A stretch of 40,059 nt of DNA, from the NCBI GenBank assembly GCA_021847065.1, contig JAJZVR010000002.1, positions 1 to 40,059 of the forward strand, in the 5' to 3' direction. Below the pieces are notes generated by a model. That model made no database searches and had not been told where the DNA came from. It was given only the letters and a program-made list of their open reading frames with translations. Position 1 is the first letter of the stretch. Each line of letters starts with the position of its first letter. The DNA is from Planctomycetota bacterium. GTDB lineage: Bacteria; Planctomycetota; Phycisphaerae; WQYP01. Below are positions 1,729 through 32,204 of the stretch, one piece after another. Both the position numbers and the translations under genes were made by a program.

Positions 1729-1855
1729 TTCTGCCCTTTTGGATTGTTCCAATTGGGTGGCTCAGCGATATTGGCCATAAATTTCCGCCGGAGAGTATTC
1801 CATGATCGGGATTCTCCGGCAGAAAGAGAACACACTCTTTTTAAGGAATGTTTTT

Positions 1856-2692: not shown

Positions 2693-2713
2693 TACGAAGC
2701 TCTTTCCAGGAGA

Positions 2714-6965: not shown

Positions 6966-7105
6966 AGAGCAGAGCGGACGAGGTTCCTGGTTGGAGTTTC
7001 AGGGTCAAGACAAGAAGGCGGTGACGATGTTGAGGAAAATGTTTTATCAGGCGTAGTCCGCTTATTTGTGGAAATTTTTAAGTGTCTTTTTAAGGAGAGT
7101 CTATC

Positions 7106-8089
7106 ATGATTACTAAAAATCTTTTAAGTGTTTTGGCCTCGGCCGGCGCGGTTGCCGCTCTGGCGGTGTGTACGCAAACGTCCCCGGGAGCAATCACGGG
7201 AGTTATCAGTTCGAATGTCGAAGGGTTCTTCGGTTCCACCAGCGACACCTACCAGCAGTCTGAACTGCCGCTTAGTCCGCCCTGGACTGCGGTTGGTTTC
7301 GCATTGCCATATAGCCCGGGGGGCTTGCCCAACATTCCGCCATTGTATGCTGGTTTTCCGAATCCGAATCCTCCGATTACTGTAAACATTCCCTTCACCG
7401 CACCGGTGGGCCATGCGCCGGCCAGTCCATTTACGGATGGCATCACCACTGCCGACTATCACATTTATGGCGGCTACGGCACCTCCGGTACTTACACGCG
7501 CAATGCCTACGCCCGGTTGGGCAACAGCACGTCAACGCTGATGTATTTGGACCAACCCACCACCGCCACCGGCTATGCCTACGAGGACGTGCAGTTCGCC
7601 ATTGATTACAGCGTGGACCTCAACGGGCTTACCGCCGGCGCGACCCTTAACAACCGGCCCTACCTGGTATTCGGCAATTTTCTGCCCGGCGGATCGGCGG
7701 AGTTCGGCGCGCAGGTTAATTACTGGTGGATTCCGACCAGCGTCAACACCGGGACGGGCGTGACTATCTATGGAACACCCGTCAATCTCGGATCCTTGCA
7801 GTATCAGAAGTATTTAGCAAGCGTGACCGGCCCATTTGTCTCGCTGGTGCCCGATACGTATAGCTCCAACTATCTCCTCGGAGTGGCTCCTGGCCAAAGC
7901 GGGATACTTGAGCTTACCGGCGGCATGTATCTCATTGGCGATCCGGTCAGTATTTCCGTGGAGGCGGTGCCCGAACCCGCTTCGCTGGCCGTGCTGGCAT
8001 TGGGTGCCTTGGGATTACTGCTGATTCGCCGCAAAGCGACAGGAGAAAAAGGAGTTGCATTGCCCGGAAAATCGGTGGATTTTTCTTGA
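7106..8089 (+). CDS. Secreted PEP-CTERM protein of unknown function
   Basis: 327 aa. The SD aaggag lies 8 nt upstream of the ATG. The signal peptide is LLSVLASAGAVAALAVCTQTSPGA. The C-terminus is VPEPASLAVLALGALGLLLIRRK. Confidence 0.85.
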   Translation: MITKNLLSVLASAGAVAALAVCTQTSPGAITGVISSNVEGFFGSTSDTYQQSELPLSPPWTAVGFALPYSPGGLPNIPPLYAGFPNPNPPITVNIPFTAPVGHAPASPFTDGITTADYHIYGGYGTSGTYTRNAYARLGNSTSTLMYLDQPTTATGYAYEDVQFAIDYSVDLNGLTAGATLNNRPYLVFGNFLPGGSAEFGAQVNYWWIPTSVNTGTGVTIYGTPVNLGSLQYQKYLASVTGPFVSLVPDTYSSNYLLGVAPGQSGILELTGGMYLIGDPVSISVEAVPEPASLAVLALGALGLLLIRRKATGEKGVALPGKSVDFS

Positions 8090-8513
8090 CTTTCTAAAGG
8101 AAACGATGTATATAGATGGTTAACCTTTCCGAGGGAGTTCAACACCGGCAAGGACTGTAACTTCTGAGGAATGTCGTGGCCGGTTGGGCCGCAGGATTGT
8201 CCAAAACGCAAATTCACGGATGATGGGTTGTAAGCATTAACGGGTTATTCGCCTGATCGCACGGATGTGATTATTTTTCGTATTGTGCGAAAAATAGGGT
8301 CTCGGCGCGCTGGAACGGCCAACTGCTCTGCTGCCCATCCGATCGACGTTTTTTTGCCAAGGGCGTAAAAATAGCGCCTGAACGCGGAAATAGAATCGTT
8401 GATGCGTTCCGATGGAATCGGGATGCTCTGGCTTTGAGTGATTCGGAGTCCCTGTACGCAGTGCGCGGAGCAGGAAGTCCGGAGTTAGAGATTAGTTCTT
8501 TAAGGAGAATATT

Positions 8514-9461
8514 ATGAATACCGGCGTAACATCCATTCAATTGGCCATCCCGATGTGTCGGGACAACCTCCAGCCCATTAGGTCCGTGGGCGGTTTAGGG
8601 TGCTCTCATAGGCAGCAGGCTAATAGGTTTACCAAAAGGGTTTCAGCTTCCCGTGGTTCTTTATGGGGCGTTGCGATGCTCGCAGTCGCGGCGGTGGGCG
8701 TATCGACTCTGGCCACCGTCTCGGCGTCACCCGTGTTGCTCGTCGATTACAAAGCCGTCAACTACAACGCCATCACGGGTGTTTGGACTGATTCATCCGG
8801 TAATGGCAATAACGCCACCGTACCTGTTACGGCAACCGCGCCAACACTTCTGGCCAACGCCACGCCCAACGGCTCTTCAGCGGTCAGTTTCGTAGCAGGT
8901 TTCGGCCCGCAGGAATACCTGGACATCACGACCGGCTTGGCGCCGGGCAGCGGGTACACCATCTTGGCCTTTGGCGAGCCTACGGAAGCGGTGTACCTCG
9001 ATGATAATCTGGTGGGTGGCCCATCGGGAGCGGTCAAATATTTCATTGGTCCGACGCAGGGCATCAACTACCAACTGCTGGGTAACGGCGCAACCACGTT
9101 TGGCTCGTCCAATACGGGCGTACCGACTACCGCATTCAGCATGATCGGCGTCGCCACTGACAACGTGGGTAACGCAACGTTCTATTTCAACGGCAGCGCC
9201 GACGGAACCACCACCGGCAGCAGTCCGTTCACCGCAGCCATCAATCTCATCGGCGCCAGAGCAGCGCCGGCCACTGGCTTTTTCACCGGCAACATCGCGG
9301 AGTTGCAGGTTTACAGCGGCGTTTTGACCACCAGTCAGGTCCAGACGGTGAATCAGTCGTTTATTAATTCGTACGTTAACTCCGTACCGGAACCCGGTGC
9401 GCTGGTCATGCTGGCATTGGGTACTTTGGGATTGCTGCTGATTCGCCGCAGGACGGCCTGA
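8514..9461 (+). CDS. LamG/concanavalin-A-like lectin domain protein with a PEP-CTERM anchor
   Basis: 315 aa. The SD aaggag lies 7 nt upstream of the ATG. FFTGNIAELQVYSGVLTTSQV is the characteristic last strand of LamG-type jellyroll domains. The C-terminus is VPEPGALVMLALGTLGLLLIRRRTA. The hydrophobic signal segment starts only near residue 55, so the true start could be internal. Confidence 0.75.
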   Translation: MNTGVTSIQLAIPMCRDNLQPIRSVGGLGCSHRQQANRFTKRVSASRGSLWGVAMLAVAAVGVSTLATVSASPVLLVDYKAVNYNAITGVWTDSSGNGNNATVPVTATAPTLLANATPNGSSAVSFVAGFGPQEYLDITTGLAPGSGYTILAFGEPTEAVYLDDNLVGGPSGAVKYFIGPTQGINYQLLGNGATTFGSSNTGVPTTAFSMIGVATDNVGNATFYFNGSADGTTTGSSPFTAAINLIGARAAPATGFFTGNIAELQVYSGVLTTSQVQTVNQSFINSYVNSVPEPGALVMLALGTLGLLLIRRRTA

Positions 9462-9780: not shown

Positions 9781-10760
9781 TATTGATCAGTGATCAGTGG
9801 TCATCGATCATTGCGTTGGCCGGCGCTGTTTGACAAGACAATAATACGCCACCAGTGTGAAACTGGAAGATGGATGAAGTTGGAAGATAGAAGCCAATGA
9901 AGGATACTGTCCTACTTGGAATCGACATCCCCGCACGCATTCATCTATAGCATTCGCAGCAACCCTGCGCCTCCGAAAATATTGATCAGTGATCAGTGGC
10001 TTTTTTTTTGAGCGCAGCATGACCCGCTCCGCGAAGATTTTCCGCGCTGTGCTGCAGCATGGATGCCGTAGTCGCGATGCGATTTGAAATCGCGTATCGG
10101 GATTGCTCGTTGTTCGTTGAGCGCAGCGTTTCGTTGTTCGTTGCAGCGAACCGCCCGCGCCCACTCCGCGCGCTCTCCTGTTCACCTGTTCAACGATCAC
10201 CTGATCTAGCCGCCGCAGCGGCTACCCCCCCCTTCAAAACATCTTGAGCATCTAGAGCATCTAGAGCATCTTGAAGAACACCCGCTAAAATCAACGCTCC
10301 CATCAACTTGTTCAACTTGAGCACCTTGCCACCCGAACTTGAGTTCTAGAGCAAGTTGAAATTCGCAAAGTCTTCTAACTCAACTTCTAACTTCTCCTGG
10401 CCCCGTAGGGGCCTCCAAAACCACTTGGCCCACTTGGCCACCTTGAACTAAACCCGCTACCATCAAGGTGTTTCGCAACTTTCCGAACTTGGACACCTTG
10501 CCCCCTGAACTTGGCCCTCTTGGCCCCCTTGAAATTCGCATAGAACGTTGTTCGTTGTTCGTTGTTCGTTGTTCGTTGCAATAATGATCCGTGTCAGGAT
10601 GTGACACCGTAACCTGTCACCCGTCACCTGTAACCTAAAACCTCGGCAGCCGCCGCCGCTAGGCTCCAAACATTTTAAGCGGTGAGCAGCACCGCATCTC
10701 ATTAAGGCCACTGTCCCGGCGCGCCGGGATCTCATTACTCATTGTTCATTGAGCGTAGCG
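9781..10760. repeat. ORF-free tract of about 1 kb made largely of short (7-20 bp) direct doublets/triplets, two ~90-bp degenerate units and a heptanucleotide microsatellite
   Basis: Read directly from the sequence. Elements seen:
- tattgatcagtgatcagtgg twice (9781, 9980).
- tcgttgttcgttg twice (10107, 10131).
- cacctgtt doublet (~10180).
- agcatct three times (~10248-10270).
- ccacttggc twice (~10421).
- (cgttgtt)x4.7 at 10546.
- gtcacc/gtaacc words (~10590-10640).
- ctcatt-type triplet (~10729).
- tgagcg(c/t)agc three times (10009, 10118, 10750). Confidence 0.8.
10546..10578. repeat. Heptanucleotide microsatellite (CGTTGTT) x 4.7
   Basis: cgttgtt cgttgtt cgttgtt cgttgtt cgttg, read directly. 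Shorter copies of the same word occur at 10107-10119 and 10131-10143. Confidence 0.9.
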
Positions 10761-10838
10761 CCTCCCCATTAGCTGAATCGCCGTTGCGCTGCAGAAACGG
10801 TCGCAGGCCCCTCTCCGTTCCAGGCGGTGTGCCCGCTT

Positions 10839-10866
10839 TTGTCAGGAATTGAAAATATGGCATAAT
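10839..10866 (+). promoter_or_regulatory. Sigma70-type promoter candidate for folA (TTGTCA-N16-TGgCATAAT)
   Basis: The -35 is ttgtca (10839-10844), with a 16-nt spacer. An extended -10 reads tgg+cataat (10858-10866). It lies about 112 nt upstream of the folA ATG. This is a pattern match only. Confidence 0.45.
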
Positions 10867-10920
10867 ACAGGGTGTTCCGGCAGGAAAGCCGGTGTTTTTA
10901 AGCCGACGGATTATGGAAGA

Positions 10921-10957
10921 GCTTGATAAAACGGACACAAGGAATGTTTTATCAAGC
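10921..10957 (+). promoter_or_regulatory. Perfect 12-bp stem hairpin in the folA 5' leader
   Basis: gcttgataaaac (10921-10932) pairs with gttttatcaagc (10946-10957), with a 13-nt loop. The hairpin ends 21 nt before the folA ATG and has no U-tract. A weaker hairpin with a U-run (ccggc-aggaaa-gccgg-tgttttt) sits at 10877-10899. Confidence 0.5.
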
Positions 10958-10978
10958 AAATGGGGTCGCTGGTGATTT

Positions 10979-11473
10979 ATGATAATAAGTCTTATTGCCG
11001 CGATGACACCCGATCATGTCATGGGGCTTAACGGACAACTTCCCTGGAATGTGCCGGAAGATCTCAAACACTTCAAAAGGCTTACCACCGGGCATACGGT
11101 TTTAATGGGCCGCAAGACATTTGATTCCATCCGCAAACCGCTGCCCAACCGTACCAATTTGATCTTGAGCCGACAGATTCCAGCACACATTCCGCCGGGC
11201 ACGCACTGGTTTACAGACTTGAATAAGGCGATCACCGTGGCGAAGAAATCCGGCGAACCGGAGCTATTTGTGGTTGGCGGTGCGGAAATTTATGCCATGG
11301 CCATGCCGCTGGCGGACCGCCTGTATATCAGTATTATAAAACTCGACGCCCCCGTCATTGGCGATACGTGGTTTCCGCAGTGGCAGCCGGCGCAATGGCG
11401 CTTGGAAAGCCAGCGGGAACTTCCCGGTGTGGAATTTCTTACCTATAACCGCATCCATGCGGCACCGCCCTGA
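10979..11473 (+). CDS. folA: Dihydrofolate reductase
   Basis: 164 aa. It reads ISLIAAMTPDHVMGLNGQLPWNVPEDLKHFKRLTTGHTVLMGRKTFDSI...LFVVGGAEIYAMAM...ADRLYIS, which is the classic DHFR motif set at the expected length. Confidence 0.92.
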   Translation: MIISLIAAMTPDHVMGLNGQLPWNVPEDLKHFKRLTTGHTVLMGRKTFDSIRKPLPNRTNLILSRQIPAHIPPGTHWFTDLNKAITVAKKSGEPELFVVGGAEIYAMAMPLADRLYISIIKLDAPVIGDTWFPQWQPAQWRLESQRELPGVEFLTYNRIHAAPP

Positions 11474-16618: not shown

Positions 16619-16824
16619 ATATATATCTCGCGTGCGGCAGTGACCGCAGGGGTGACAGAGAGTGCAAGACATTCGAGGCTGAAAGATGGTGGCGGCCTTC
16701 GAATATGACAAAATATGGATTGTGTATGGCGCAGGCCCGCCGCTTCCCCGGCACAACGTGGAGGTCTGTGCTGGTGTGATCTGCACCATACACTATCACT
16801 TAAACTCGTTTCCTCCTCCGCCAG

Positions 16825-16862
16825 GCCGTGTGGACCCACCCTCCTCCACACGGCTTTTTTAT
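16825..16862 (+). terminator. Intrinsic (Rho-independent) terminator-like hairpin with no upstream + strand gene
   Basis: gccgtgtgga (16825-16834) pairs perfectly with tccacacggc (16845-16854), with a 10-nt loop. The run ttttttatt follows. It lies 76 nt upstream of the citrate synthase ATG and about 230 nt downstream of the sigma54 promoter. Confidence 0.65.
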
Positions 16863-16937
16863 TGCGCTGAAAACTATACGCCTGCGCGTCGAGCGTGTAT
16901 TATTGATGGGTCTGGTGAGCGTTCAGGAGTAACCGTT

Positions 16938-18083
16938 ATGACCCAAAGCCCAAATACTACTACAACAGTGGCGGCAGCAAGCGGAGGCCTGCGCGACATC
17001 GTTGCATTAAGCTCTTCGATCTGTTCGATTGAAAACGGTATTTTAACCTATCGCGGTATAACCATTGATGAACTGGCGGAAAATTCCACCTTTGAAGAAG
17101 TGGTTTTTCTACTATGGAATGGACGGTTACCGACGCGCGTGGAATTCGACGATTTGCGGCAATCCATTGCCGAGCAGGCACAATTGCCGGAAGGTTTGCT
17201 GGCGATGATGAAATCGTTTCCCCGACGTACGACACCAATGGAAGCACTGCGAACCGCGGCCAGCGCCATGGCGATGTTTGATGCGGAATCAGAGGATATG
17301 TCCGCGGCGGCCAATCAGCGAAAATCAGTCCGCATTCTGGGCCAAATGGCCAGTGTAGTGGCGGCGTATGACCGCATCCGCAATGATCGCGAGCCACTGG
17401 TACCCCGGCGGGACTTGAATCTGGCCGCCAACTTTTTATACATGCTTACCGGGCGTTCACCTGAACCTCTGGCCACGCGAGCGTTGGATAAAGCATACAT
17501 TCTCCATGCGGATCATGAATTAAATGCCAGTACGTTTGCAGCGCGTGTGGCGGCGGGAACGCTGACGGATATGCACTCGGCGCTGGTGGCCGCGATTTGC
17601 GCTTTGAAAGGCCCACTGCATGGCGGAGCCAATGAGCAGGTCATGCGGATGCTTAATGAAATCGGCAATCCGGACACCGTGGATTCCTATATCCGGGCCA
17701 AGCTGGATAACCATGACAAAATCATGGGCTTTGGACATGCCGTTTACAAAAATGGCGATCCGCGGGCGCGGCACTTAAAGGAAATGTCGCGGCAACTTGG
17801 CACGCTTACGGGCCAGCAACGCTGGTACGAAATGTCCGTGCGCATTGAAGACATGGTAATGCGAACCAAGAACCTCAAGCCGAATGTCGATTTTTACAGC
17901 GCCTCGGTGTATCACTACCTGCATATACCGGCTGATCTTTTTACACCGATTTTTGCCATCAGTCGGACCAGTGGATGGATTGCCCATATTTTGGAGCAAT
18001 ATTCCAATAACAAGCTCATCCGCCCCCGTGCGGAATATATTGGGCCGCGAAACCAGCATTGGAAATCGTTTGCATCCCGCTGA
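16938..18083 (+). CDS. gltA: Citrate synthase (about 380 aa, dimeric CitZ / 2-methylcitrate-synthase-like type)
   Basis: Motifs HADHELNAST, LKGPLHGGANE, GFGHAVYKNGDPRA and DFYSASVY are present. The start is placed at ATG 16938, 8 nt after caggag. The track ORF extends in frame back to 16686, but that extension crosses the terminator hairpin and looks non-protein-like. Confidence 0.9.
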   Translation: MTQSPNTTTTVAAASGGLRDIVALSSSICSIENGILTYRGITIDELAENSTFEEVVFLLWNGRLPTRVEFDDLRQSIAEQAQLPEGLLAMMKSFPRRTTPMEALRTAASAMAMFDAESEDMSAAANQRKSVRILGQMASVVAAYDRIRNDREPLVPRRDLNLAANFLYMLTGRSPEPLATRALDKAYILHADHELNASTFAARVAAGTLTDMHSALVAAICALKGPLHGGANEQVMRMLNEIGNPDTVDSYIRAKLDNHDKIMGFGHAVYKNGDPRARHLKEMSRQLGTLTGQQRWYEMSVRIEDMVMRTKNLKPNVDFYSASVYHYLHIPADLFTPIFAISRTSGWIAHILEQYSNNKLIRPRAEYIGPRNQHWKSFASR

Positions 18084-18143: not shown

Positions 18144-18833
18144 ATGATAATTCTAGTAGTTGGACCACATCCCGATGATCAGGAACTGGCAATGGGCGGC
18201 ACGATCGCCGCACTGACCAGACAAAAGCATCATGTAACATTACTGGATATGACCAACGGCGAACCAACTCCATTCGGCGCGCCGGAAGTGCGGGCCAGAG
18301 AATCCGCAGCCGCCGCGGAAATATTGGGCGTAAAACGAATATCTCTGGGGCTGAAAAATCGTGAAGTGACATGGAGTATTGCCGCTCGTCATGCCACGGC
18401 GGCAATATTTCGCAGTGTTCGACCCGATATTGTGTTTCTGCCATATCCGATGGACGCCCACCCGGACCACCGGCAAGTCACGCAAATTGTCGAAGATGCC
18501 CGCTTTGATGCCAAACTGACAAAATCGACGATTCCGGGTGAACCATTTTATCCGCCGAGACTCATCTATTATTTCTGTTCACACCTGCGGTTTAATTTTC
18601 CAGCATCGTTCTGTTTGGATGTTTCAGATGCCATGGATGCGAAACTCGCGGCAATACGGTGTTATGAATCTCAATTCAGCACAGGGCGCACGGTGGAATC
18701 CCAATGGGAAATTCTCAAATACATCGAGAATATCAACGGCTATTTTGGCGGAACGATTCGCCGCAAGTACGCGGAACCCTTTTTCGTTCAGGAAGCATTG
18801 GGGCTAAAAACCCTCGATGGGCTGGCTTTTTAG
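18144..18833 (+). CDS. PIG-L/LmbE family N-acetylglucosaminyl deacetylase
   Basis: 229 aa. It has ILVVGPHPDDQELAMGGTIA (the metal-binding HPDD motif) and a second HPDH motif (MDAHPDHRQV). Confidence 0.8.
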   Translation: MIILVVGPHPDDQELAMGGTIAALTRQKHHVTLLDMTNGEPTPFGAPEVRARESAAAAEILGVKRISLGLKNREVTWSIAARHATAAIFRSVRPDIVFLPYPMDAHPDHRQVTQIVEDARFDAKLTKSTIPGEPFYPPRLIYYFCSHLRFNFPASFCLDVSDAMDAKLAAIRCYESQFSTGRTVESQWEILKYIENINGYFGGTIRRKYAEPFFVQEALGLKTLDGLAF

Positions 18834-18881: not shown

Positions 18882-20015
18882 ATGACCAAAGACTCGCAGG
18901 GCACAAAAATCGAAGTAACGGAATCCTCCAAGCGCGGGGGGCCGCCAAAAATACATAAATACTTTGAAGTCGTAACCAAGGTGGAAGGCAGTGACTTGCA
19001 CATCAAGGCCGATGTGCTGCCGCGCGTGCGAAAATCGGGACGCCTGGTTCCCACCACCGGCACACCGCTTAGCAATGCGGAAATTGAAGCCATGGTCAAA
19101 GAAATGCTCAATGACGAGCAGTGGCATGATTTCCTGCACCGCGGCTCATTGGACATCGCGTATGCTGTCACCCCTACCGAGCGATTCCGTGTTAATATTT
19201 TCCGGCAGCGCGGCATGGTAAGTTTGGCGGCGCGGCGCATTAACCCGAAAATTCCGAATTTTGCCCAATTGCACCTGCCGGAGGTCTTTGAAAAAATTGC
19301 GGAAAATGAGCAGGGACTGGTCATGCTGGCCGGGATCACAGGCAGCGGTAAAAGCACCACGATTGCGGCGATGCTGCAACAGGTCAACGACCGTCGATCC
19401 TGCCATATTATTACGATTGAAGACCCCATTGAATACACGTATGTGGATCAGAAAGCTTTTATCAACCAGCGTGAAGTGGGCTTGGATGTGGAAAGCTTTG
19501 AAATGGCGATCCGCTACATGATGCGTGAAGATCCGGACGTTATCCTGATTGGCGAAATGCGAGACCGCCTGACCTTTCAGGCCGCAGTACAGGCCACGGA
19601 AACCGGACACATGGTATTTTCCACCATTCACGCCGCCAGTGCGCCCGGTGCCATTACGCGCGTACTTGAATTGTTCCCTCCGGACATGCACATGAATATG
19701 CGTCAAGCCATTGCCAACAATATGAAGGCAATTATCTTCCAGAAGCTTGTGCCGGCCATTGATCCCGCCGTCGGGCGGGTACCGGTGGTGGAAGTAATGT
19801 TGAATTCACCGTCGGTGAGAAAGTATATTCTTGAAGGCCGTGAAAATGAGTTGACGCAGGTTATCCGTTCGGAGCGCGGAGCCGGGATGATTGATTTTAA
19901 CGACATGTTGTGTGAACTGGTGGCCAGCGAAACCATAACACACAAAGAAGCGTATATCGCTTCACCGAATCCGGATGAATTGCGGATGCGCATGAAGGGA
20001 ATCCGCACAAATTAA
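18882..20015 (+). CDS. pilT: PilT-family (twitching-motility-type) hexameric secretion ATPase
   Basis: 377 aa. All catalytic motifs are intact: Walker A GITGSGKSTT, Asp box IITIEDPIEY, Walker B DPDVILIGEMRD and His box TGHMVFSTIHA. Confidence 0.88.
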   Translation: MTKDSQGTKIEVTESSKRGGPPKIHKYFEVVTKVEGSDLHIKADVLPRVRKSGRLVPTTGTPLSNAEIEAMVKEMLNDEQWHDFLHRGSLDIAYAVTPTERFRVNIFRQRGMVSLAARRINPKIPNFAQLHLPEVFEKIAENEQGLVMLAGITGSGKSTTIAAMLQQVNDRRSCHIITIEDPIEYTYVDQKAFINQREVGLDVESFEMAIRYMMREDPDVILIGEMRDRLTFQAAVQATETGHMVFSTIHAASAPGAITRVLELFPPDMHMNMRQAIANNMKAIIFQKLVPAIDPAVGRVPVVEVMLNSPSVRKYILEGRENELTQVIRSERGAGMIDFNDMLCELVASETITHKEAYIASPNPDELRMRMKGIRTN

Positions 20016-20176
20016 TTGGTGCTTTCAGGAAAGTTTATTTGGAGGTACATACGGCGTCAAGGACGATTCCGTGAAGAAGGCTCTGGCATAATTAGCCGAA
20101 TCATGGTAAGTTTTGCATTTGGCGGTCGGTAGGTTCGCGTCTGAAGCTACGCGCAGAAGCAGGAATAATTGCTTTG

Positions 20177-21970
20177 ATGTACGTAAATGTCATTTATGTT
20201 CTAGTGGCGGTTGCGGTTCTGGTGCTATGGGGCCGCTTTCTTGTCTGGATTGACAATGATCTTCCCAACATGCCGGAACAGCCGGCACAGCTATGGAAAG
20301 GCGTACTGCTGGCGTCAATAGCCATTCTCCTGCTGGTTTGGCTGCTGATCCCAAATTTCTGGTTTGCGTTGATTCTTAACATATTTATTCCTGTGGCACT
20401 GTTGGCTTATTATTGGCGCACGCGGGTTCAGGTTCTGGGGAGTTCCGGGGATTTATTGGGAGCCATATCGGGGCACATGACGCAATTCTCTGCCGGGCGG
20501 CAGGCAAAAAAATCCGTTTCGCAACTGGGTTTGCGGTATGAGGGTAAAGGTGGTAAGCCGCTGCATCTACCGGCTGTTGAAGACCCCGGTTACAACGGAG
20601 TGGTGCTGCTGGATCAATTGCTCATACAGGGCCTGGAAAATCGGGCTCAGCGCATTGATCTTATGCCGTCGGCTCAGGCGTATGAAATGTCCTTTACCAC
20701 CGATGGCGTGGCGTATCCACAATCTGGAATGCAACGGTCCAATGCCGAACCGTTGATTCAGGCCGTTAAGCAGCTCACCGGCCTTTCACTGGAAGAGCGA
20801 CGCCGGCCGCAATCAGCCGCGTTCACCACACGTGATGCGGACAACAATCCGGTTCATTGGACCGCCAATACCAGCGGCACAACTGCCGGTGAACGGTTAT
20901 GGCTGCAAGTCAACGCCAAAGACAATTGGAAAATGCCGCTGGATCATCTGGGCATGTCCTCGGAACAACTCACAGCATTACGTGAGGTGTTAAAAGGCAA
21001 TGAAGGATTGGTCATTGTTTCATCGCCTCCGCACATGGGTCGTACCACCACGCTTTATTCACTGCTGGCCAATCATGATGCTTACACCACGAGCATTAAC
21101 ACCTTTGAAATTAATCCGCGGGCGGATTTTGAATCTATCTCCTTAACCCGGTTTGATCCTGCGGCGGTCAATGCCAGTCACTCTAAAGCGCTGCAAAGCC
21201 TCATGCTGAAAGACCCGCATATTTTGATGGTGGCACAATGCCCCGATGCGGCAACTGCGGAACTGATCGCAAAATACTCGCGTGAGGAACACCGTGTTTA
21301 TGTTGGCCTGCGGGCCAATGACGCATTTACCGCATTGGAATTATGGCGTAAGGTTCTGCCGGATAATCAGGTGGCGGCGGCGCCGTTACGGGCCATTATT
21401 TCCCAACGGTTGATTCGCCTGCTGTGCCCGACATGCAAAATTGCCTATCAACCCGATGAAGCCATGCTGGCGAAGTTGAATTTGCCGATAGGCCGCGACC
21501 TGTCAGCGTTTAAAGCCAACACGCAACCTTCGCGTGACCAGAAGGGAAATTTAATTAAGTGCCCGGATTGTGCCAGCCTGGGCTATCGCGGGCAAACGGG
21601 AATATTTGAAATCCTGGTGATCAACGACGAAATTCGCAGAGCTATTGCCACCGGGCGGCCAGTGGAAGAAATTCGCACCTTGGCGCGTAAGAACAATATG
21701 ATGGTTCTGGTGGAACACGGATTCAGAAAATTTGCCTTGGGCATTACGTCGATCCAGGAAGTTATTCGTGTGTGTACCCCCGATAAAAAACCGGCTACAA
21801 AGGCGAAATCCACAACATCGGGGGCGTCACGGGCGGGTGCCAGCAAGGCGGGACAGATTCCCGGACAGACTCCGGGGCAAAGCCAGGCCGGAGTCGGCCG
21901 CGCGGGTAACTCACGGGCTGGCGGAACGTCCGCTGGAAACGCGCCATCCAGCGGAGTTGGAAACGACTGA
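20177..21970 (+). CDS. Membrane-anchored GspE/PilB-like secretion-ATPase paralogue with degenerate catalytic motifs (predicted pseudo-ATPase)
   Basis: About 597 aa from ATG 20177.
- About 3 N-terminal TM helices.
- A GspE N2-like segment (AQRIDLMPSAQAYEMSFTTDGV...LSLEERRRPQSA).
- Walker A position reads SPPHMGRTTTLY.
- Asp box position reads INTFEINPR.
- Walker B position reads DPHILMVAQCPD.
- His box position reads VGLRANDA.
- The tetracysteine cluster CPTC...CPDC and GYRGQTGIFE are retained.
- A ~60 aa A/G/S/R-rich tail ends the protein. Confidence 0.75.
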   Translation: MYVNVIYVLVAVAVLVLWGRFLVWIDNDLPNMPEQPAQLWKGVLLASIAILLLVWLLIPNFWFALILNIFIPVALLAYYWRTRVQVLGSSGDLLGAISGHMTQFSAGRQAKKSVSQLGLRYEGKGGKPLHLPAVEDPGYNGVVLLDQLLIQGLENRAQRIDLMPSAQAYEMSFTTDGVAYPQSGMQRSNAEPLIQAVKQLTGLSLEERRRPQSAAFTTRDADNNPVHWTANTSGTTAGERLWLQVNAKDNWKMPLDHLGMSSEQLTALREVLKGNEGLVIVSSPPHMGRTTTLYSLLANHDAYTTSINTFEINPRADFESISLTRFDPAAVNASHSKALQSLMLKDPHILMVAQCPDAATAELIAKYSREEHRVYVGLRANDAFTALELWRKVLPDNQVAAAPLRAIISQRLIRLLCPTCKIAYQPDEAMLAKLNLPIGRDLSAFKANTQPSRDQKGNLIKCPDCASLGYRGQTGIFEILVINDEIRRAIATGRPVEEIRTLARKNNMMVLVEHGFRKFALGITSIQEVIRVCTPDKKPATKAKSTTSGASRAGASKAGQIPGQTPGQSQAGVGRAGNSRAGGTSAGNAPSSGVGND

Positions 21971-22040
21971 TTGGGACAGGCGTGCGAACGGGGGTTGGCC
22001 AGACCACGATTCGCCGCCGCAGCGCATTGGACGATCATAG

Positions 22041-23681
22041 ATGATTCTTCAATTCATCGTACTGTTGTTTATTATCCTCTTTGCGCTTTACATGGCCAAT
22101 GAGGGGCCGCTGTCGGCATTGCTGTTGCTGTGCGCAAGCTTCTTCGCATCCGCACTGGCGATGGGAGTCTATCAGTCCTGGTCGAAACCAATTCTGAATC
22201 ATCGCCCGGATTTTGCGTATGGGGTTACCTTTCTGCTGGTATTTTTCCTCGCATTTTCACTTATTCGCACCGCTTTTGATTACCTGGTTCGCGGGGATGT
22301 TGAATTACCGCTCTGGCCCGGACGCATTGTGGGAGGGGTATTCGGTTTTTTTACCGCCATGATTTTGATTGGCTCCGTGATGGTTGGCGTGCAAATGCTG
22401 CCGCTGCCCAGCAGCATTCTGGGCTACAGCCGATACAGCACGGCACAGGATTTGGCCAGTAATTCACCCAGTGGATTGTGGCTGGACCCGGATGGTTTTG
22501 TCACGAGCCTTTGGGGATTGGTCAGTGGCCGAAGCTTGGGCGAACATTCTTTCAGCAAGTACAACCCGGAACCGTTGCGGCAGTTTTACGCTGACCGCTA
22601 TACGGTGCAATATGCCGGGGCCAAAGCGCTTCCGCCAAGCCTGTTGCATGTTCCCTTCGCCGGGCCATTACCGGTTGGAATGATCAAGCGCTATGGCATT
22701 CCAGCGGCCGGAAAGCAGGTTATTTTGGTTCGTACGGAAGTAAATCATGGCAGTGCCCAGCCGAATATAAGTTCAGACCAGGGCTATTTCCGATTAACCC
22801 CCGCCGAAGTGCAGTTGGTTACTACGGGCGGCGGAATGTATTTCCCCAGCGGATATCTTGAGGATGGCCGCCATTATACGCCGCTGAAACTCAATGATCC
22901 AATGGTCGATGACTACCGAACCGTTCATGGCCACCGTCGGGTGGTTCAAGATTGGGTATTTCTTATTCCCGACAATGATCAACCGCTGGTTTTACGTATG
23001 AAGCAAACGGCGGAAGCGAATTTGTTGACGGGGCTGACCGGCGAAAAATTTGAACCTCTGCGGGCTTCAGATTATCCGCGACTACCCTACAACAATTCGT
23101 CGCTTGAAGTTCAATTGACGGCCAAGAATTTGTCATCGGCACCGGTCAATATGTGGATTATTCCCGCCGGCACGCGGATGTCGGACGTGCGATTTATCAT
23201 GCAATCGGCATCCGCGAGACTCGGACGCATTCGCCGTGCAATAGCTGCTGGAAAGCCACCTTGGTCATCGGCAAATATCACCGGAAATCCCAATACCAGC
23301 ATGGTGCAGATGTACCATCAAAATGCCTTGAATTTGCGGTTGCAGCATGATGCGCCCTGGGCGGAAATACTGCCGGTGTTACTGACTTCTCAGGTAGGTA
23401 CGAATACCAATGATTCGCTCACGCGAATGCGCAGTTACTTCCGCGATACTCTTAAGCCGATGCTGGCCAAACAGCGTGTCGCGGCCAGAACGCTCAATGC
23501 CCAAGGCCAACTCAATAAACCCATTAAACTGGGGCCTGCTCCATATGACATTCTGATCTGGACGCACTCGGCGGCACAAATGCGCGTCTGGTTAAAGAGC
23601 GTCACTGTGCATGAGGGGGGAAAGGCCAGTGTGAAGGTGGTATCGGGTGATAAGCTGGTGAATTACTCGATATCGCAATAA
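22041..23681 (+). CDS. Membrane protein with a CvpA-like 4-TM N-terminus and an unassigned ~400 aa C-terminal domain
   Basis: 546 aa. The N-terminus, MILQFIVLLFIILFALYMANEGPLSALLLLCASFFASALAMGVY...GRIVGGVFGFFTAMILIGSVMV, follows the CvpA (colicin V production) pattern. I recognise no motif in the rest of the protein. Confidence 0.55.
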   Translation: MILQFIVLLFIILFALYMANEGPLSALLLLCASFFASALAMGVYQSWSKPILNHRPDFAYGVTFLLVFFLAFSLIRTAFDYLVRGDVELPLWPGRIVGGVFGFFTAMILIGSVMVGVQMLPLPSSILGYSRYSTAQDLASNSPSGLWLDPDGFVTSLWGLVSGRSLGEHSFSKYNPEPLRQFYADRYTVQYAGAKALPPSLLHVPFAGPLPVGMIKRYGIPAAGKQVILVRTEVNHGSAQPNISSDQGYFRLTPAEVQLVTTGGGMYFPSGYLEDGRHYTPLKLNDPMVDDYRTVHGHRRVVQDWVFLIPDNDQPLVLRMKQTAEANLLTGLTGEKFEPLRASDYPRLPYNNSSLEVQLTAKNLSSAPVNMWIIPAGTRMSDVRFIMQSASARLGRIRRAIAAGKPPWSSANITGNPNTSMVQMYHQNALNLRLQHDAPWAEILPVLLTSQVGTNTNDSLTRMRSYFRDTLKPMLAKQRVAARTLNAQGQLNKPIKLGPAPYDILIWTHSAAQMRVWLKSVTVHEGGKASVKVVSGDKLVNYSISQ

Positions 23682-23798
23682 GGATTCTCCGCCCGGCGAT
23701 TTGACCATTGCGGAAGTGTGCTACAATAACTATAAGTAACGTCGTTGCGGCCCGTGGGTGGCTCGCACATTGGGCAATATGTTTTTAGGAGTACCATC

Positions 23799-24434
23799 AT
23801 GGCTTTTCAACTTCCTTCTTTACCGTATGACTTCAGCGCATTGGAACCGGTTATCGATACGCAAACCATGCAGATTCACCATGGCAAGCATCATGGAGCG
23901 TATGTTACCAATCTGAACAATGCTATTGCCGGCAAGGCCGCTTTGGAGGCCAAAAGCCTCGAAGCACTCATTGGCGATCTCTCGGCCATCCCTGAGGATA
24001 TCCGGGTAGCTGTGCGTAACAATGGCGGCGGCAATGCCAATCACACCATGTTCTGGCAGATCATGGCACCAAAAGGAAAAGGCGGCGGCGGTGAGCCGAC
24101 CGGAGACTTGGCGGCGGCAATCAAATCCACTTTTGGATCCTTTGCTGATTTTAAGACACGTTTGGGAGAAGCCGCCACCAAACGCTTTGGCTCTGGGTGG
24201 GCGTGGCTGGTGCTGAAAGATGGCAAACTGGCCATTGGTTCAACCGCGAATCAAGACAATCCGCTGATGGGTGAGGCCGTTTGCGGGTTGAGCGGCAAGC
24301 CGATTCTCGGGCTGGATGTCTGGGAACATGCATACTATCTGAAATATCAAAATCGTCGGCCTGAATACATCACCAACTGGTGGGAAGTCGTGAACTGGCC
24401 GAAGGTTGCGGAAATTTATCAGGCGGCAAAGTAA
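23799..24434 (+). CDS. sodA: Superoxide dismutase, Mn-type (Fe/Mn SOD family)
   Basis: The start is ATG 23799, 7 nt after aggag (the track ORF begins at 23745). It reads [58 protein letters not shown] and [21 protein letters not shown]. This closely parallels E. coli MnSOD as I recall it. Confidence 0.92.
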
Positions 24435-24466: not shown

Positions 24467-24503
24467 AAAGCCCAAGCGGTGAACACCGCTTGGGCTTTTT
24501 TTT
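24467..24503 (+). terminator. Rho-independent terminator of sodA
   Basis: aaagcccaagcgg (24467-24479) pairs with ccgcttgggcttt (24486-24498), with a 6-nt loop. An 8-T run follows. It begins 33 nt after the sodA stop. Confidence 0.85.
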
Positions 24504-24634: not shown

Positions 24635-26632
24635 ATGAAACGTATTTACGCCATTGTTTTGAAGCTTCTTCCGGTACTCGCAATGGCGGTGCCTCTACTA
24701 TTCGCGTTGACCGTGGCGCATGGCCGCGCGGGCGGCGGCGAAGGGTTTGGTGGAGGTGGCTTTGGCGGAGGTGACAGCGGAGGGGGCGGTGGCGGAGGCG
24801 GGGGAATTATTATCTGGTGGATTGTGGAATATCTGGTACTGGAGCATCCGGTTATTGGCATTCCGGTGCTGATTGTGGCCGGAATTCTATATTATAAAAC
24901 ACACATCTCCGTTGCCGGTTATGTCCGCGACCAGCGCACGCAGGCCGGACTTGCGGCGGTGGATGAAAACGCCGAAGCGGCGGCGGTGCTTGAGTTGCAG
25001 CAATCCGATCCGGCCTTTGATCTGCAAAAATTTTATGGCCGCGTGAATACTGCTTTCCTCAAAATTCAAGATGCGTGGTGTGCCCAGAACCTGCAAACCA
25101 TTCGCCCGTTTATTTCCGATGGCACACATGAAAGATTCGGCCTGCAATTCACAGAACAGAAACTGGATTCTGTGCGTGATCGAATGAAAAATATTGCCGT
25201 GCGGCAAGTACAGATGGTGCAATTGATACATGACAATGTATTTGATTCCGCAACCGTCCGCATTACCGCCTCGGCTGTGGATCAAACACTTTCCACACTG
25301 GATGGCAGAGTGATATCCGGATCGGGCGAAGCGGAAGAATTCACGGAATATTGGACGTTTCTTCGCCGCCGGGGAGCAAAAACCCCCAATGGTGCCGGGC
25401 TGATTGAAGGAAATTGTCCGAACTGCGGCGCCGCGATTGAACTCAATGCCGGTGCCCAATGCCAGAGTTGCCACGCCTTGTTACGCAGTGGCCAATACGA
25501 CTGGGTGCTGGCGGAAATAACCCAGGATTCCCAGTGGGAACCGGAAACATCGCGTGATACGCCCGGCGTAACAGCGTTGCAAACCCGTGATCCGGATTTC
25601 ACGCTCGCCGGATTGGAAGATCGCGTTTCGGTGATATTCTGGCGGAAGGTGCTGGCGGACAGACTGGGAAAAGTGGACCCATTACAGAAAGTTTCCGCAG
25701 CGACATTTATCCAAAGCTACAGCCCTCTGCTGGCGCCGCAAACCAATGGCGTGCGGGCGTTCTGGGGTGATTGTGCCGTGGGTGCGGTGCAGACCATGGG
25801 AATTTTCGCAAGTGCTCCGATGAATAAGGCCCTGGTGGAAGTGCGATGGTCGAGTCGACGGTATCAGACCGATGCGTCCGGAAAAGCGCAGAAAACCCCG
25901 CAAAGCAATATGGCGCAGCATTTGATGGTGCTGGAGCGTCAAAATAACGCCAAGACCGATCCGAATAAGGGCATATCTTCCGCCCATTGCCCGAATTGTG
26001 GCGCTCCGATTATGGATGATACATCCAATGCGTGCAGTTTCTGCGGCACGGTACTTAACGATGGCTCCAGCGACTGGATTCTTCTGGATATGCTGCCCGT
26101 ATCTGGACAGGCGGCACAGGATTTACTTCTGGCGTTGGCGCAAAGTAATGACCTGATTTCCGATCCCGCACAAACACGGCAACAGGTTGCGGCAATGCTT
26201 AATGTGTCACCGCCGCCGCCCAATGGCCTGCTGGCGTGGATGGTCAAATCGGTGGTCGACAATGGCAATATCGACGGTGGTGAAGAACGCATGTTGCGAC
26301 ATACGGCAGATCGTCACGGCGTGACCGATGAGCAATTGCATCGCATGATGGATGCGGCCCGGCGCGGTGAATTGCAAATCACAGAACCCAAAACGCCCGA
26401 TGAAATTCATCGCTGGCTGGGAGCCATGGTGGCCGCCGCGGTAATGGACGGCGAATTATCACCCACTGAACAGCGCTTAATTGCGACGGTTGGCAAAAAA
26501 TATGGTTTAAGCGACTATGACATAAAAATGCTGATCCGTCAGCAACAGGACCAACTTTATGCGACCGCCCGGCAAGCCTTAAGCGATCGCCGCCAGCGAA
26601 TGCGCACCGGAGGCAGTACTGCGGCACAGTGA
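24635..26632 (+). CDS. Tim44-like domain membrane protein with two zinc ribbons and a TerB-like C-terminal domain
   Basis: 665 aa.
- A signal or TM segment comes first.
- A poly-Gly tract follows (GGGEGFGGGGFGGGDSGGGGGGGGG), then a TM segment.
- There are two similar modules, each ending in a zinc ribbon and an acidic Trp motif: CPNCGAAIELNAGAQCQSCHALLRSGQYDWVLAEI and CPNCGAPIMDDTSNACSFCGTVLNDGSSDWILLDM.
- The C-terminus has paired DG..S..E helices (DGGEERMLRH..., DGELSPTEQRLIATV), as in TerB/DjlA-N domains. Confidence 0.6.
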   Translation: MKRIYAIVLKLLPVLAMAVPLLFALTVAHGRAGGGEGFGGGGFGGGDSGGGGGGGGGIIIWWIVEYLVLEHPVIGIPVLIVAGILYYKTHISVAGYVRDQRTQAGLAAVDENAEAAAVLELQQSDPAFDLQKFYGRVNTAFLKIQDAWCAQNLQTIRPFISDGTHERFGLQFTEQKLDSVRDRMKNIAVRQVQMVQLIHDNVFDSATVRITASAVDQTLSTLDGRVISGSGEAEEFTEYWTFLRRRGAKTPNGAGLIEGNCPNCGAAIELNAGAQCQSCHALLRSGQYDWVLAEITQDSQWEPETSRDTPGVTALQTRDPDFTLAGLEDRVSVIFWRKVLADRLGKVDPLQKVSAATFIQSYSPLLAPQTNGVRAFWGDCAVGAVQTMGIFASAPMNKALVEVRWSSRRYQTDASGKAQKTPQSNMAQHLMVLERQNNAKTDPNKGISSAHCPNCGAPIMDDTSNACSFCGTVLNDGSSDWILLDMLPVSGQAAQDLLLALAQSNDLISDPAQTRQQVAAMLNVSPPPPNGLLAWMVKSVVDNGNIDGGEERMLRHTADRHGVTDEQLHRMMDAARRGELQITEPKTPDEIHRWLGAMVAAAVMDGELSPTEQRLIATVGKKYGLSDYDIKMLIRQQQDQLYATARQALSDRRQRMRTGGSTAAQ

Positions 26633-28116: not shown

Positions 28117-28710
28117 ATGGCCACGGATGAAGATCTTGTTGCGGAGTTTGTGGCCGGTAATCAGGCCGCATTTGCCGAATTGGTGGAACGCTACCGCAGA
28201 GAGCTTTTCAGCTTCTTGCAGCGTTTTATCAATGAGGCGGCTTTAGCGGAGGATTTATTTCAGGAGACATTCATTCAGGTGTATCGCAGCGCCGTGACGT
28301 TTGATTCCAAGCGGCGGTTTCGCCCGTGGTTATTTACCATTGCCGCGAATAAAGCGCGGGATCATCTGCGCGCCAGCATGCGGCGCGGCACTCAGTCGCT
28401 GGATAATATCTCCGGCCATGACGCAGAACAGGGAACATTTTTGGATCTTATGGAGTCTGATACGCTTTCAGCTCCGGAACGTTTAATAGATATGGAGGAC
28501 GCCGCTGCGGTACGGCAAATCATCGCCCGGTTGCCGACGATTTATCGGGAAGTGCTGTTGTTAAGCTACTACAACCGCTTCGCATATAAAGAAATCGCGG
28601 AAATGCTGGGAATTCCGCTGGGAACGGTAAAAAGTCGCCTCCACTCAGCCTTGGCCATGTTTGGCGAAGCGTGGAGTGTGCGGCTAGGTGAAGGAAAGCA
28701 ACGTGATTAA
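28117..28710 (+). CDS. ECF-family RNA polymerase sigma-70 factor
   Basis: 197 aa. Region 2 reads LFQETFIQVYRS...FRPWLFTIAANKARDHLR. Region 4 reads YREVLLLSYYNRFAYKEIAEMLGIPLGTVKSRLHSAL. Confidence 0.9.
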   Translation: MATDEDLVAEFVAGNQAAFAELVERYRRELFSFLQRFINEAALAEDLFQETFIQVYRSAVTFDSKRRFRPWLFTIAANKARDHLRASMRRGTQSLDNISGHDAEQGTFLDLMESDTLSAPERLIDMEDAAAVRQIIARLPTIYREVLLLSYYNRFAYKEIAEMLGIPLGTVKSRLHSALAMFGEAWSVRLGEGKQRD

Positions 28711-31388: not shown

Positions 31389-32204
31389 TTACGCAGCGGA
31401 GCGGTGTGGCACAGAATGCTCCGATTTCTGTAAGGCATTGGTAAGCCTTTCACGCAACTGTTCACCGGTGAGTTCACGCACAAACTCACCGCGCTGGGCA
31501 ATACTTATAATGCCGGTCTCTTCACTGACCACGATGATGATCGCGTCACTTTCCTGCGACAGGCCAAGTGCCGCCCGATGGCGCGCCCCCATTTCCGGGC
31601 TGACTTCAACGCCCTCCGCCAGTGGAAACTGCACGCCCGCAGCCGCGATTCGGCCTTCACGGATCACCACGCCCATATCATGAAGCATCGAGCCGGGCCA
31701 GAAAATCGTGTTTAATAATTCCGATGTTGTATCGGCGTTAAGAATGGTTCCCTGCTCCAAAAGCGCTCCTAAGCCAACCTCCCGCTCGACAGCAATCAGG
31801 GCACCAATGCGATTGCGCGAGCAATATTCGGCCGTTTGGCACAGGGAGTCAATTAATCGCCGGGAGGCTGAACTGCCGGGCCGGAAAAAGCGGGTTTCCC
31901 CCAGGCGGATCAAGGCCCGGCGCAATTCCGGCTGAAAGACCACCACGATGGCAAAACTGGTGAATACCAGCAGACGGCTGAAGAGAAATTCGACCTGCGG
32001 CAATTTATTGCCGCCGAGTTTGATAATGGTGTAGGCAATAATTAAAAAAAGAGCCACGCCCTTAATGAGTCGCGCGCCGCGCGTACCGCGTAAAAATTCC
32101 AGCACCCAATAAACCACCACGCCAATTAAAGCCAACTCCAGCGTTACAACCCACCAGGGATAGGCAGTTAATCGATTCAGCAGTGTGTGCAAAAAATCCA
32201 GCAT
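31389..32204 (-). CDS. cdaA: Diadenylate cyclase CdaA (DisA_N/DAC domain, three N-terminal TM helices)
   Basis: 271 aa. It has VVFQPELRRALIRLG, NRIGALIAVERE, GARHRAALGLSQESDAIIIVVSEETGIISIA (RHR motif) and LHDMGVVI at the position of the canonical LHDGAVII. Confidence 0.85.
   Translation of the reverse strand: MLDFLHTLLNRLTAYPWWVVTLELALIGVVVYWVLEFLRGTRGARLIKGVALFLIIAYTIIKLGGNKLPQVEFLFSRLLVFTSFAIVVVFQPELRRALIRLGETRFFRPGSSASRRLIDSLCQTAEYCSRNRIGALIAVEREVGLGALLEQGTILNADTTSELLNTIFWPGSMLHDMGVVIREGRIAAAGVQFPLAEGVEVSPEMGARHRAALGLSQESDAIIIVVSEETGIISIAQRGEFVRELTGEQLRERLTNALQKSEHSVPHRSAA

Follow-up and report, generated by a model that had tools for sequence, protein, structure and literature searches.

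A conserved Phycisphaerae module of a membrane-tethered PilB-like pseudo-ATPase, a CvpA-like membrane protein and a PilT/PilU-family ATPase

Introduction

The ATPases of pilus and secretion systems are usually viewed as soluble motors that work on a PilC/GspF platform and move pilin-like subunits. A 40,059-nucleotide stretch of DNA from a Planctomycetota bacterium (GenBank assembly GCA_021847065.1, contig JAJZVR010000002.1, hereafter the window) carries near its centre a PilT/PilU-family ATPase gene (gene 1, positions 18882-20015, 377 residues), a gene for a tethered pseudo-ATPase (gene 2, 20174-21970, 598 residues when read from TTG) and a gene for a CvpA-like membrane protein (gene 3, 22041-23681, 546 residues). 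The names on near-identical proteins and loci place the host in the Phycisphaerae. The question raised by this locus is whether the three genes belong together and, if they do, what an ATPase fold without catalytic residues could do between an intact motor and a CvpA-like protein. The analysis described below showed that the three genes form one conserved functional module, and that this trio is the Phycisphaerae pseudoenzyme variant of a wider module of an anchored ATPase and a CvpA protein, with or without PilT. The gene 2 family departs from the usual view: helices of its own hold it in the membrane, and its constant partner is a CvpA-family protein.

Gene 2 is a PilB-like fold without catalytic motifs

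All three genes lie on the + strand with intergenic gaps of 158 bp and 70 bp, in agreement with the co-directional arrangement and the gaps of about 160 and 70 bp given in a preliminary description of the locus, which was made by eye from the DNA. The likely start of gene 2 is the ATG at 20177 that follows the TTG at 20174, and this start agrees with a database protein of 597 residues (P0001).

The product of gene 2 matches PF00437 with 156 bits over residues 145-532 and is aligned by HMMER to the Thermus PilF structure 6ejf with an E value of 1.5e-41. The AlphaFold2 (AF2) model of the protein has a predicted local distance difference test score (pLDDT) of 82.3. Foldseek comparisons of this model retrieved PilF (5oiu, E 2e-38, target TM-score (TMt) of 0.85) and chains of PilB (5tsh, TMt of at most 0.88), and placed the soluble part on PilF, PilB and EpsE with E values of 2e-38 to 2e-33. 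The AF2 and Foldseek results delimit an N2-like domain and a C-terminal RecA-like ATPase fold within residues ~140-535 (20591-21778), as in PilB and GspE (PulE, EpsE). A tetracysteine zinc-binding cluster of the same family, CPTC (418-421) and CPDC (463-466), is retained at 21419-21577, and its cysteines C418, C421, C463 and C466 are invariant in the aligned relatives. The GYRGQTGIFE motif (GY.G.TGIFE in PilB/GspE) is also kept, as is ERRRPQ (208-213), which is conserved in the aligned relatives. The secretion-ATPase fold with a zinc cluster that was proposed earlier is therefore well founded.

Differences from PilB/GspE are concentrated in the catalytic motifs. In the alignment to PilF, the Walker A sequence GPTGSGKS is replaced by SPPHMGRT (within SSPPHMGRTTT, 21020-21052), so that the Walker A lysine is missing. 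The Asp box IEDPVEYE is replaced by FEINPRAD (within NTFEINPRAD, 21098-21127). In the Walker B segment KDPHILMVAQCPD (21209-21247), VGEIRD has become VAQCPD with loss of the catalytic glutamate, and in the His box (YVGLRANDAF, 21299-21328) TLHTNDA has become GLRANDA with an arginine in place of the histidine. The substitution of every catalytic motif, claimed earlier, thus holds. A P-loop elsewhere in the protein, which would have undone that claim, was looked for with the patterns [AG]xxxxGK[ST] and GK[ST], and neither occurs anywhere in gene 2.

The second group of differences lies at the N terminus. The match of gene 2 to TIGR02533 is confined to model positions 112-485, showing that the N1 domain is absent; this domain normally docks GspE/PilB onto GspL or PilM. 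A module of three transmembrane (TM) helices, residues 1-88 (20174-20437), stands in its place. Hydropathy and the AF2 model agree on three helices (6-32, 38-58 and 62-88 in the model), the number estimated in the preliminary description, and the model places a further helix (94-117) ahead of the N2-like domain. The family motifs of the TM module (W19, D29, W41, P60 and R84) are invariant or nearly so in the alignments. A topology with the N terminus outside and the C terminus inside is predicted, which would leave the ATPase-fold domain in the cytoplasm; this topology fits the signal-peptide-like segment ahead of the first TM helix in the distant relatives P0072, P0074, P0240 and P0311.

Scores of gene 2 against the equivalog models TIGR02533, TIGR02538, NF007755 and NF053534 are 175-194 bits, far under the cut-offs of 617-850. 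In its catalytic motifs, N1 domain and scores, gene 2 thus falls short of GspE/PilB, and it should not be annotated as a functional member of that family. The low-complexity tail described earlier is present as a Ser/Ala/Gly/Arg-rich segment (21779-21967) with a pLDDT below 50 for residues 540-598, which predicts disorder. However, it is a peculiarity of the closest relatives, being alignable in P0008, P0013 and P0015 and reduced to a shorter remnant in P0024.

Gene 3 joins a CvpA-like membrane module to a domain of its own

The N-terminal part of gene 3 gives a score of 24.0 bits over residues 5-125 with the Colicin_V family (PF02674), under the gathering score of 29.3. Each of the 14 orthologues in the alignment is a match to the family, the best with an E value of 1.5e-10, and both hydropathy and the AF2 model give four N-terminal TM helices. 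The CvpA-like region together with a juxtamembrane segment comprises residues 1-~190 (22041-22610, + strand), and this is the sole part conserved in distant modules. The profile of gene 3 aligns by hhalign with the third gene of locus L081 with a probability of 98% over columns 1-190, and with that of L083 with 96% over columns 1-179; the N termini of gene 3 and of the distant third genes also have motifs in common.

The remaining ~350 residues (~195-546, 22623-23678, + strand) form a beta-rich domain with some helices. The AF2 model of this domain has pLDDT values of ~65-95 over most of its length, falling below 50 at residues 239-247, and the TM part and the linker (120-195) are of low confidence. 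No Pfam match was found for the domain, and a Foldseek search of the gene 3 model against the PDB gave no match at E<=0.001 and nothing under E 0.17. The description of gene 3 as a CvpA-like four-helix anchor with a large unassigned domain therefore stands. The CvpA C terminus has been predicted to be periplasmic and variable in length (bioRxiv 10.1101/2020.09.25.314492). By transfer of this published topology, the C-terminal domain of gene 3 is predicted to be periplasmic.

The possibility that gene 3 is a divergent PilC/GspF, which would have turned the locus into an ordinary pilus gene fragment, was rejected: no T2SSF (PF00482) match was found at E<=1, the PDB holds no match to the beta-rich extra domain, and the N terminus is CvpA-like. 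In comparison with CvpA proteins, gene 3 shares the four-helix N-terminal module and differs in the extra domain without known relative. An architecture of this kind is found in MarP (Rv3671c), in which a CvpA-like four-helix N terminus anchors a large periplasmic C-terminal domain that is a serine protease. However, neither Foldseek nor Pfam recognised a protease or any other fold in the gene 3 domain.

Gene 1 is an intact PilT/PilU-family ATPase

Gene 1 scores 390.3 bits with TIGR01420 (pilT_fam, cut-off 319.1) and covers positions 2-343 of the 343 in the model. It is aligned end to end with its best PDB matches, PilU 9n32 (6e-78) and PilT 5fl3 (4e-77). Its Walker A (GITGSGKS, residue 151), Asp box (IEDPIEY), Walker B (GEMRD, residue 224) and His box (STIHAAS) are intact, and hydropathy gives no TM segment, as expected of a soluble protein. 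The preliminary description had called gene 1 a textbook PilT, and the intact motifs support the catalytic half of that statement. The name is less secure. PilT is distinguished from PilU by the AIRNLIRE motif; gene 1 has SVRKYILEG at this place, and its scores with PilU and PilT structures are nearly equal. Gene 1 is thus best assigned to the PilT/PilU family rather than demonstrably to PilT, and for brevity the upstream ATPase is called PilT below. Its setting differs from that of known retraction ATPases in that it adjoins dead PilB-like and CvpA-like genes, not pilU or a pilus cluster.

The three genes are kept together across Phycisphaerae

A close set of 42 species-level Phycisphaerae loci with a gene 2 orthologue (31-95% identity) was compared. 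Gene 3 lies directly downstream of gene 2 in all 42 loci, and PilT directly precedes gene 2 in 34 of the 41 for which upstream DNA is present. The trio is also kept in L081, L083 and L111 (the last a Phycisphaeraceae locus), where gene 2 identity is 27-33% and the flanking genes are different. The third genes of these three loci resemble gene 3 only over the CvpA-like first ~180-190 residues. A CvpA-family gene lies directly downstream of the pseudo-ATPase gene in these loci and also in L110 and L112. The co-conservation on which the preliminary description had made its proposal depend was thus observed. Since PilT is absent from some loci, the conserved core is the pair of genes 2 and 3, with PilT as a frequent but not obligatory companion. 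As a separate observation, two contigs of MAS4.bin39 (L025 and L041) each carry the pair without PilT, so that either the genome has the pair twice or the bin mixes two strains.

Purifying selection is strong on each of the three genes, with ratios of nonsynonymous to synonymous substitution rates (dN/dS) of 0.017-0.029 for gene 1, 0.040-0.054 for gene 2 and 0.076-0.092 for gene 3 (0.017-0.092 overall). The open reading frame (ORF) of gene 2 is full-length and intact in all loci. The strength of selection on gene 2 points to a maintained pseudoenzyme, not a decaying gene. Accidental adjacency, or decay of gene 2 into a pseudogene without joint function, is contradicted by these data and is very improbable. 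Some of the synteny does reflect relatedness alone, since the neighbouring PIG-L deacetylase, citrate synthase and superoxide dismutase (SOD) genes are also syntenic in close relatives. However, relatedness does not account for the low dN/dS of gene 2 (0.04-0.05) with its intact reading frame, for the retention of the trio between unrelated flanks in distant relatives, or for the overlapping start and stop codons found in relatives (described below).

Catalytically intact relatives carry the same membrane anchor

In a word search with gene 2, from which the 120 best hits were tabulated, ~105 were TM-bearing proteins of ~540-730 residues, all without canonical motifs, P0105 being the sole one to keep GKT. 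Canonical motifs were found among these hits only in soluble tandem ATPases of ~1000 residues. A profile search was then evaluated against 1.84 billion representatives of clusters at 50% identity. The best 150 matches comprised 121 TM-bearing dead proteins, 10 short dead fragments, 13 soluble active tandem proteins and 5 TM-bearing proteins with motifs fully or largely intact; a sixth match flagged as TM-bearing and active (P0228) is a tandem ATPase of ~1000 residues. The dead TM-bearing family thus contains at least 121 clusters at 50% identity. Its Walker A region is variable, reading PPHM, PKLN, PKVS or LSKQ in different members.

The soluble tandem proteins (P0085, P0194, P0223 and about a dozen more, ~1000 residues) contain two complete GspE/PilB-type units each. 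They have high scores with the gene 2 profile and are unrelated to the membrane module. P0085, P0194 and P0223 were considered as fusions of a dead and an active unit; the motifs are intact in both units of these three, which were fully read, and they were set aside as uninformative tandem duplications.

The active relatives P0240, P0281, P0282, P0311 and P0317 carry the same N-terminal 3-TM module as gene 2. The N terminus of the active form has a signal-peptide-like start, followed by W-x-D-x-D, WN (a WN/WK motif in the family), P-x-F and an R-N-x-x-V-P exit. When the active TM-bearing proteins were themselves used as the starting point of a second search, 118 matches were obtained, of which 107 are TM-bearing and catalytically intact; they are named mostly as Verrucomicrobiia or Verrucomicrobiae, with some Planctomycetes and Gemmataceae. 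One anchored and catalytically intact protein, P0269 (969 residues), has a long N-terminal extension that ends in the same 3-TM module. By eye, this extension starts with an FHA-like domain which, if real, hints at phospho-threonine-dependent regulation in some lineages.

A locus scan with an alignment of the active relatives was swamped by ordinary PilB/GspE proteins, and only L169 and L190 were useful from it. In L190 (a Verrucomicrobiae bin) and in L194, whose ATPase is 70% identical to that of L190, the active anchored ATPase gene is followed by a CvpA gene of 188-190 residues and PilT is absent. PilT is also absent from L169 (Omnitrophota), in which the active anchored ATPase is followed by a 193-residue multi-TM protein, a putative CvpA, and then by genes for a putative cell-wall amidase and a putative glutamate racemase. 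The order PilT-like ATPase, active anchored ATPase and CvpA (209-418 residues) is found in L193 (a Planctomycetes bin), L195, L196 and a contig from JGI, and the first two genes are found in L192 (Gemmataceae), which is cut at the contig end. Among the active-type loci, the five that are neither Verrucomicrobia-type nor from Omnitrophota thus all have PilT upstream. The partners of the active relatives include plain CvpA proteins of 188-219 residues that pass the Colicin_V threshold, with 58.7 bits. Four-base overlaps of start and stop codons, common among genes for subunits of one complex, join the ATPase and CvpA genes in L190 and L169 and the PilT and ATPase genes in L195.

These relatives, in other Planctomycetota bins and, for the pair, in Verrucomicrobiota and Omnitrophota bins, remove the label of an orphan module from the locus. 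Because intact relatives carry the same 3-TM module and have the same CvpA neighbour, the membrane anchor is not a result of the loss of catalysis. When the ATPase cores were compared in a neighbour-joining tree, all the dead sequences grouped as a single clade inside the active anchored ones, although long-branch attraction could inflate the apparent monophyly. P0253, the sister of the dead clade, resembles an intermediate between the active and dead forms, with Walker A and Walker B present and both the Asp box and the His box gone. In the likely history of the module, the pair of anchored ATPase and CvpA predates the split of these phyla. It is likely that PilT was added in Planctomycetota, and also likely that catalysis was lost once in Phycisphaerae, where the CvpA partner was enlarged to 415-630 residues. 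An anchored ATPase has thus turned into a pseudoenzyme in one class, under tight selection beside an intact PilT.

Pilus and secretion components are absent from the neighbourhood

The window was scanned with Pfam for ORFs of >=150 residues not shadowed by a longer annotated gene, and no match to T2SSF, pilin, peptidase A24, secretin or PilMNO was found among these ORFs of the 40-kb window. A regular expression for the prepilin motif had no hit in the six frames of the window. The earlier statement that the window holds no pilus machinery is in line with both scans. Beside the other loci inspected, no pilin, PilC, PilM-Q or peptidase gene was found, save a weak N_methyl match in L081 and a faint one in L110. 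The locus therefore differs from PilB/GspE loci in having no PilC/GspF, pilin, peptidase or secretin gene near gene 2. As noted in the preliminary description, the layout is unlike that of type II secretion systems, type IV pili, Tad or Com: the parts that define these systems are absent beside genes 1-3, there being no prepilin substrate, peptidase or platform gene with the ATPase.

N_methyl/DUF1559 prepilin-like proteins are abundant in Planctomycetota, Verrucomicrobiota and Omnitrophota, the groups whose bins yielded the recovered loci. The module could on this ground be a minimal machine for extraction or assembly of such membrane proteins, in which CvpA replaces the PilC/GspF platform, and the N_methyl-type genes of L081 and L110 lie only a few genes away from it. 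However, no N_methyl gene is consistently adjacent, no prepilin peptidase is nearby, the prepilin motif is nowhere in the window, and chance proximity is likely in genomes rich in N_methyl genes. We regard this explanation as quite unlikely.

The nearest functional analogy known to us is the archaellum, in which FlaI, a motor of the PilT/PilB superfamily, works with FlaH, a RecA-fold partner that binds ATP and does not hydrolyse it, and with the polytopic membrane protein FlaJ. The resemblance lies in the combination of an active motor, a non-hydrolysing RecA-fold partner and a membrane protein. However, FlaH is a soluble, KaiC-like protein and no dead copy of FlaI, FlaJ is homologous to PilC, and the archaellum assembles a filament from prepilin-like subunits. 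In full-text literature searches, in which subscription journals were not covered, neither a membrane-anchored PilB/GspE nor a pairing of CvpA with an ATPase was found to be described, and no report linked CvpA to a secretion-type ATPase. The names of these proteins at NCBI and JGI are generic only.

A proposed scaffold between PilT and the CvpA-like protein

Our preferred reading, held tentatively and close to an even call, is that gene 2 is a static membrane scaffold that couples PilT (gene 1) to the CvpA-like gene 3 and its periplasmic domain. In such a mechanism, gene 2 would oligomerise under the membrane like its relatives and would associate through its TM helices with the CvpA-like protein, which would take the place of the PilC/GspF platform of pilus and secretion systems. 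Ancestrally, the tethered ATPase itself may have worked on the membrane partner, and in Planctomycetota a PilT-type ATPase may have been added as a second, perhaps opposing, motor. In Phycisphaerae, the tethered ring would no longer hydrolyse ATP and would serve as a static adaptor that sets the gene 1 hexamer against gene 3. The soluble PilT/PilU-type hexamer of gene 1 would then be the sole remaining motor, and the enlarged periplasmic domain of gene 3 the output or sensing end in the cell envelope. The process served could be envelope homeostasis, peptidoglycan-related work or the handling of membrane proteins. If the parts do work together, the range of jobs of this motor superfamily is wider than thought, CvpA proteins, which occur across many bacterial phyla, gain a handle on their function, and the Phycisphaerae form is a clean natural case of conversion of a motor into a scaffold.

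Several observations weigh against this reading. An adjacent PilT is missing from 7 of the 41 close loci, and the bin KM4311-08 keeps a PilT of 91% identity on another contig, unlinked from genes 2 and 3. In two distant loci of the dead type, the place of PilT is taken by a HAMP histidine kinase (L110, 3824-5785) or a HAMP-GGDEF protein (L112, 385-1764). Recruitment of PilT to make up for the dead ATPase was considered and rejected, since in Planctomycetota the active anchored form likewise has PilT beside it. A hexamer fixed in the membrane would, moreover, have either to share with PilT or to stack with it. Finally, a remnant of the nucleotide pocket (GRT, E312 and KDP) is invariant within the closer clade, so gene 2 may still bind a ligand.

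The unlinked PilT of KM4311-08 is what would be expected if PilT had another job, and it leads to an explanation in which there is no separate machine: genes 2 and 3 would be regulators of an ordinary type IV pilus whose genes lie elsewhere, and the dead, membrane-fixed PilB look-alike would park, recruit or inhibit PilT by binding it or by occupying the docking sites of PilB and PilT. The score of gene 1 above the curated PilT/PilU-family cut-off and the position of PilT directly upstream in most loci agree with such a role, and proteins that inhibit pilus ATPase motors are known (PMC8213720, on A. baylyi). However, Verrucomicrobiota, Omnitrophota and some Phycisphaerae loci have the pair of anchored ATPase and CvpA with no PilT beside it. 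The intact catalytic motifs of the ancestral anchored ATPase would be expected of a working motor rather than of a decoy, and pilus genes are missing near the inspected loci apart from the N_methyl matches already mentioned. Regulation of a distant pilus is thus unlikely.

The kinase and GGDEF neighbours of L110 and L112 bring in a further explanation, that of an envelope-stress or signalling device in which the C-terminal domain of the CvpA-like protein senses the periplasm, the pseudo-ATPase is a signalling scaffold in the cytoplasm or a ligand sensor, and PilT is one of several possible partners. The link between CvpA and sigma-E would fit such a device, as would the invariant residues of the degenerate pocket in the closer clade. 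Sigma-factor genes, of the extracytoplasmic function (ECF) type or other, adjoin the module in L081, L083 and L007, and one lies 4 kb downstream in the window. However, the sigma-factor and kinase neighbours are inconsistent across loci, the free variation of the Walker A region in the wider dead family is at odds with a conserved ligand site, and the full ATPase motifs of the active relatives imply mechanical or transport work and not sensing alone. We consider a signalling device improbable as well. An anti-phage defence role found no support, PADLOC returning nothing for gene 2 or gene 3.

Beyond the scaffold proposed for Phycisphaerae, the whole family may constitute an unrecognised inner-membrane machine, in which a self-anchored PilB-type ring does mechanical work on a CvpA-family protein in place of a PilC/GspF platform, without pilins and, in Planctomycetota, with a PilT-type partner. 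This broader claim is possible, though we hold it with some doubt. If it is true, the anchored ATPase would be the first mechanistic partner for CvpA, and Phycisphaerae would offer a natural experiment, one of the two motors having turned into a pure scaffold there. The active version is present in Gemmataceae and other Planctomycetes bins, and genetically tractable relatives may therefore carry it.

A bolder extension would tie the machine to remodelling of peptidoglycan or the envelope, from the neighbours in two loci. In L169 (Omnitrophota), amidase and glutamate racemase ORFs, called by eye, follow the pair (5238-7169), and in L111 a MurD-like ligase follows the trio (9973-11403). These two loci are a possible hint of a cell-wall connection of the module. 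Planctomycetota are reported to divide without FtsZ.

Flanking genes and other features of the window

The genes flanking the module are housekeeping genes. A citrate synthase gene (16686-18083) lies upstream, followed by a PIG-L family deacetylase gene (18144-18833) directly upstream of gene 1 with a gap of 48 bp, and a gene for Fe/Mn SOD (23745-24434) lies directly downstream of gene 3. The PIG-L and SOD genes are syntenic with the trio in many Phycisphaerae loci. They are not at the same position in distant modules; the SOD gene of L083, for example, is ~2.3 kb upstream on the opposite strand. A terminator scan found no comparable strong intrinsic terminator between genes 1, 2 and 3. The first strong site of this type 3' of the module is a terminator-like hairpin with a 14-bp stem and a following T run at 24467-24498 (+ strand), beyond the SOD gene. 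Since the single strong terminator comes only after SOD, the module and the SOD gene may be co-transcribed, and both PIG-L and SOD may share a transcript with the module.

Downstream of SOD, a gene at 24635-26632 encodes a 665-residue protein with an N-terminal TM segment, a Gly-rich stretch, a Tim44-like domain, zinc ribbons and a weak TerB-like region at the C terminus. Its counterpart in the closest relative (L038) has 90% identity, and none was detected in the other loci. Elsewhere in the window are genes for gyrA, dihydrofolate reductase (DHFR), a diadenylate cyclase, an ECF sigma factor and PEP-CTERM proteins. The ECF sigma factor gene (28117-28710) and the diadenylate cyclase gene with its DisA_N/DAC domain (31389-32204, - strand) are both less than 10 kb downstream of the module, the former at ~4 kb. 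The sigma factor gene is followed by a 338-residue ORF without Pfam matches, possibly its anti-sigma factor. Comparable arrangements are seen beside the dead ATPase in two other loci, an ECF sigma factor followed by an unannotated 274-residue ORF in L081 (4979-6367) and by a 227-residue ORF, a putative anti-sigma factor, in L007 (5371-6627). At the other end of the window, three PEP-CTERM-tailed proteins are encoded in a cluster at 1802-9461 (1802-2692, 7106-8089 and 8514-9461), the last with a concanavalin-like lectin domain, and among them are large ORFs without any Pfam match (454-1728 and 4374-6965).

The spacer between genes 1 and 2

The leader between genes 1 and 2 (20016-20173, + strand, 158 nt) is unusually conserved. 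Rfam found nothing in the window, this spacer included. A sigma-54 promoter in the spacer was considered and rejected by eye, its GG-to-GC spacing being two bases short. The mean column identity of the spacer is 81% over six orthologous loci, at a coding dS of ~0.5-1.3. RNAalifold predicted 37 pairs, of which only 3 have a compensatory change. In this prediction, the conserved GCGUCAAGG block pairs with CUUUGAUGU over the start codon of gene 2, and AUUCC pairs with a Shine-Dalgarno-like GGAAU. This modelled pairing could cover the ribosome-binding site and start codon of gene 2 and suggests control of its translation.

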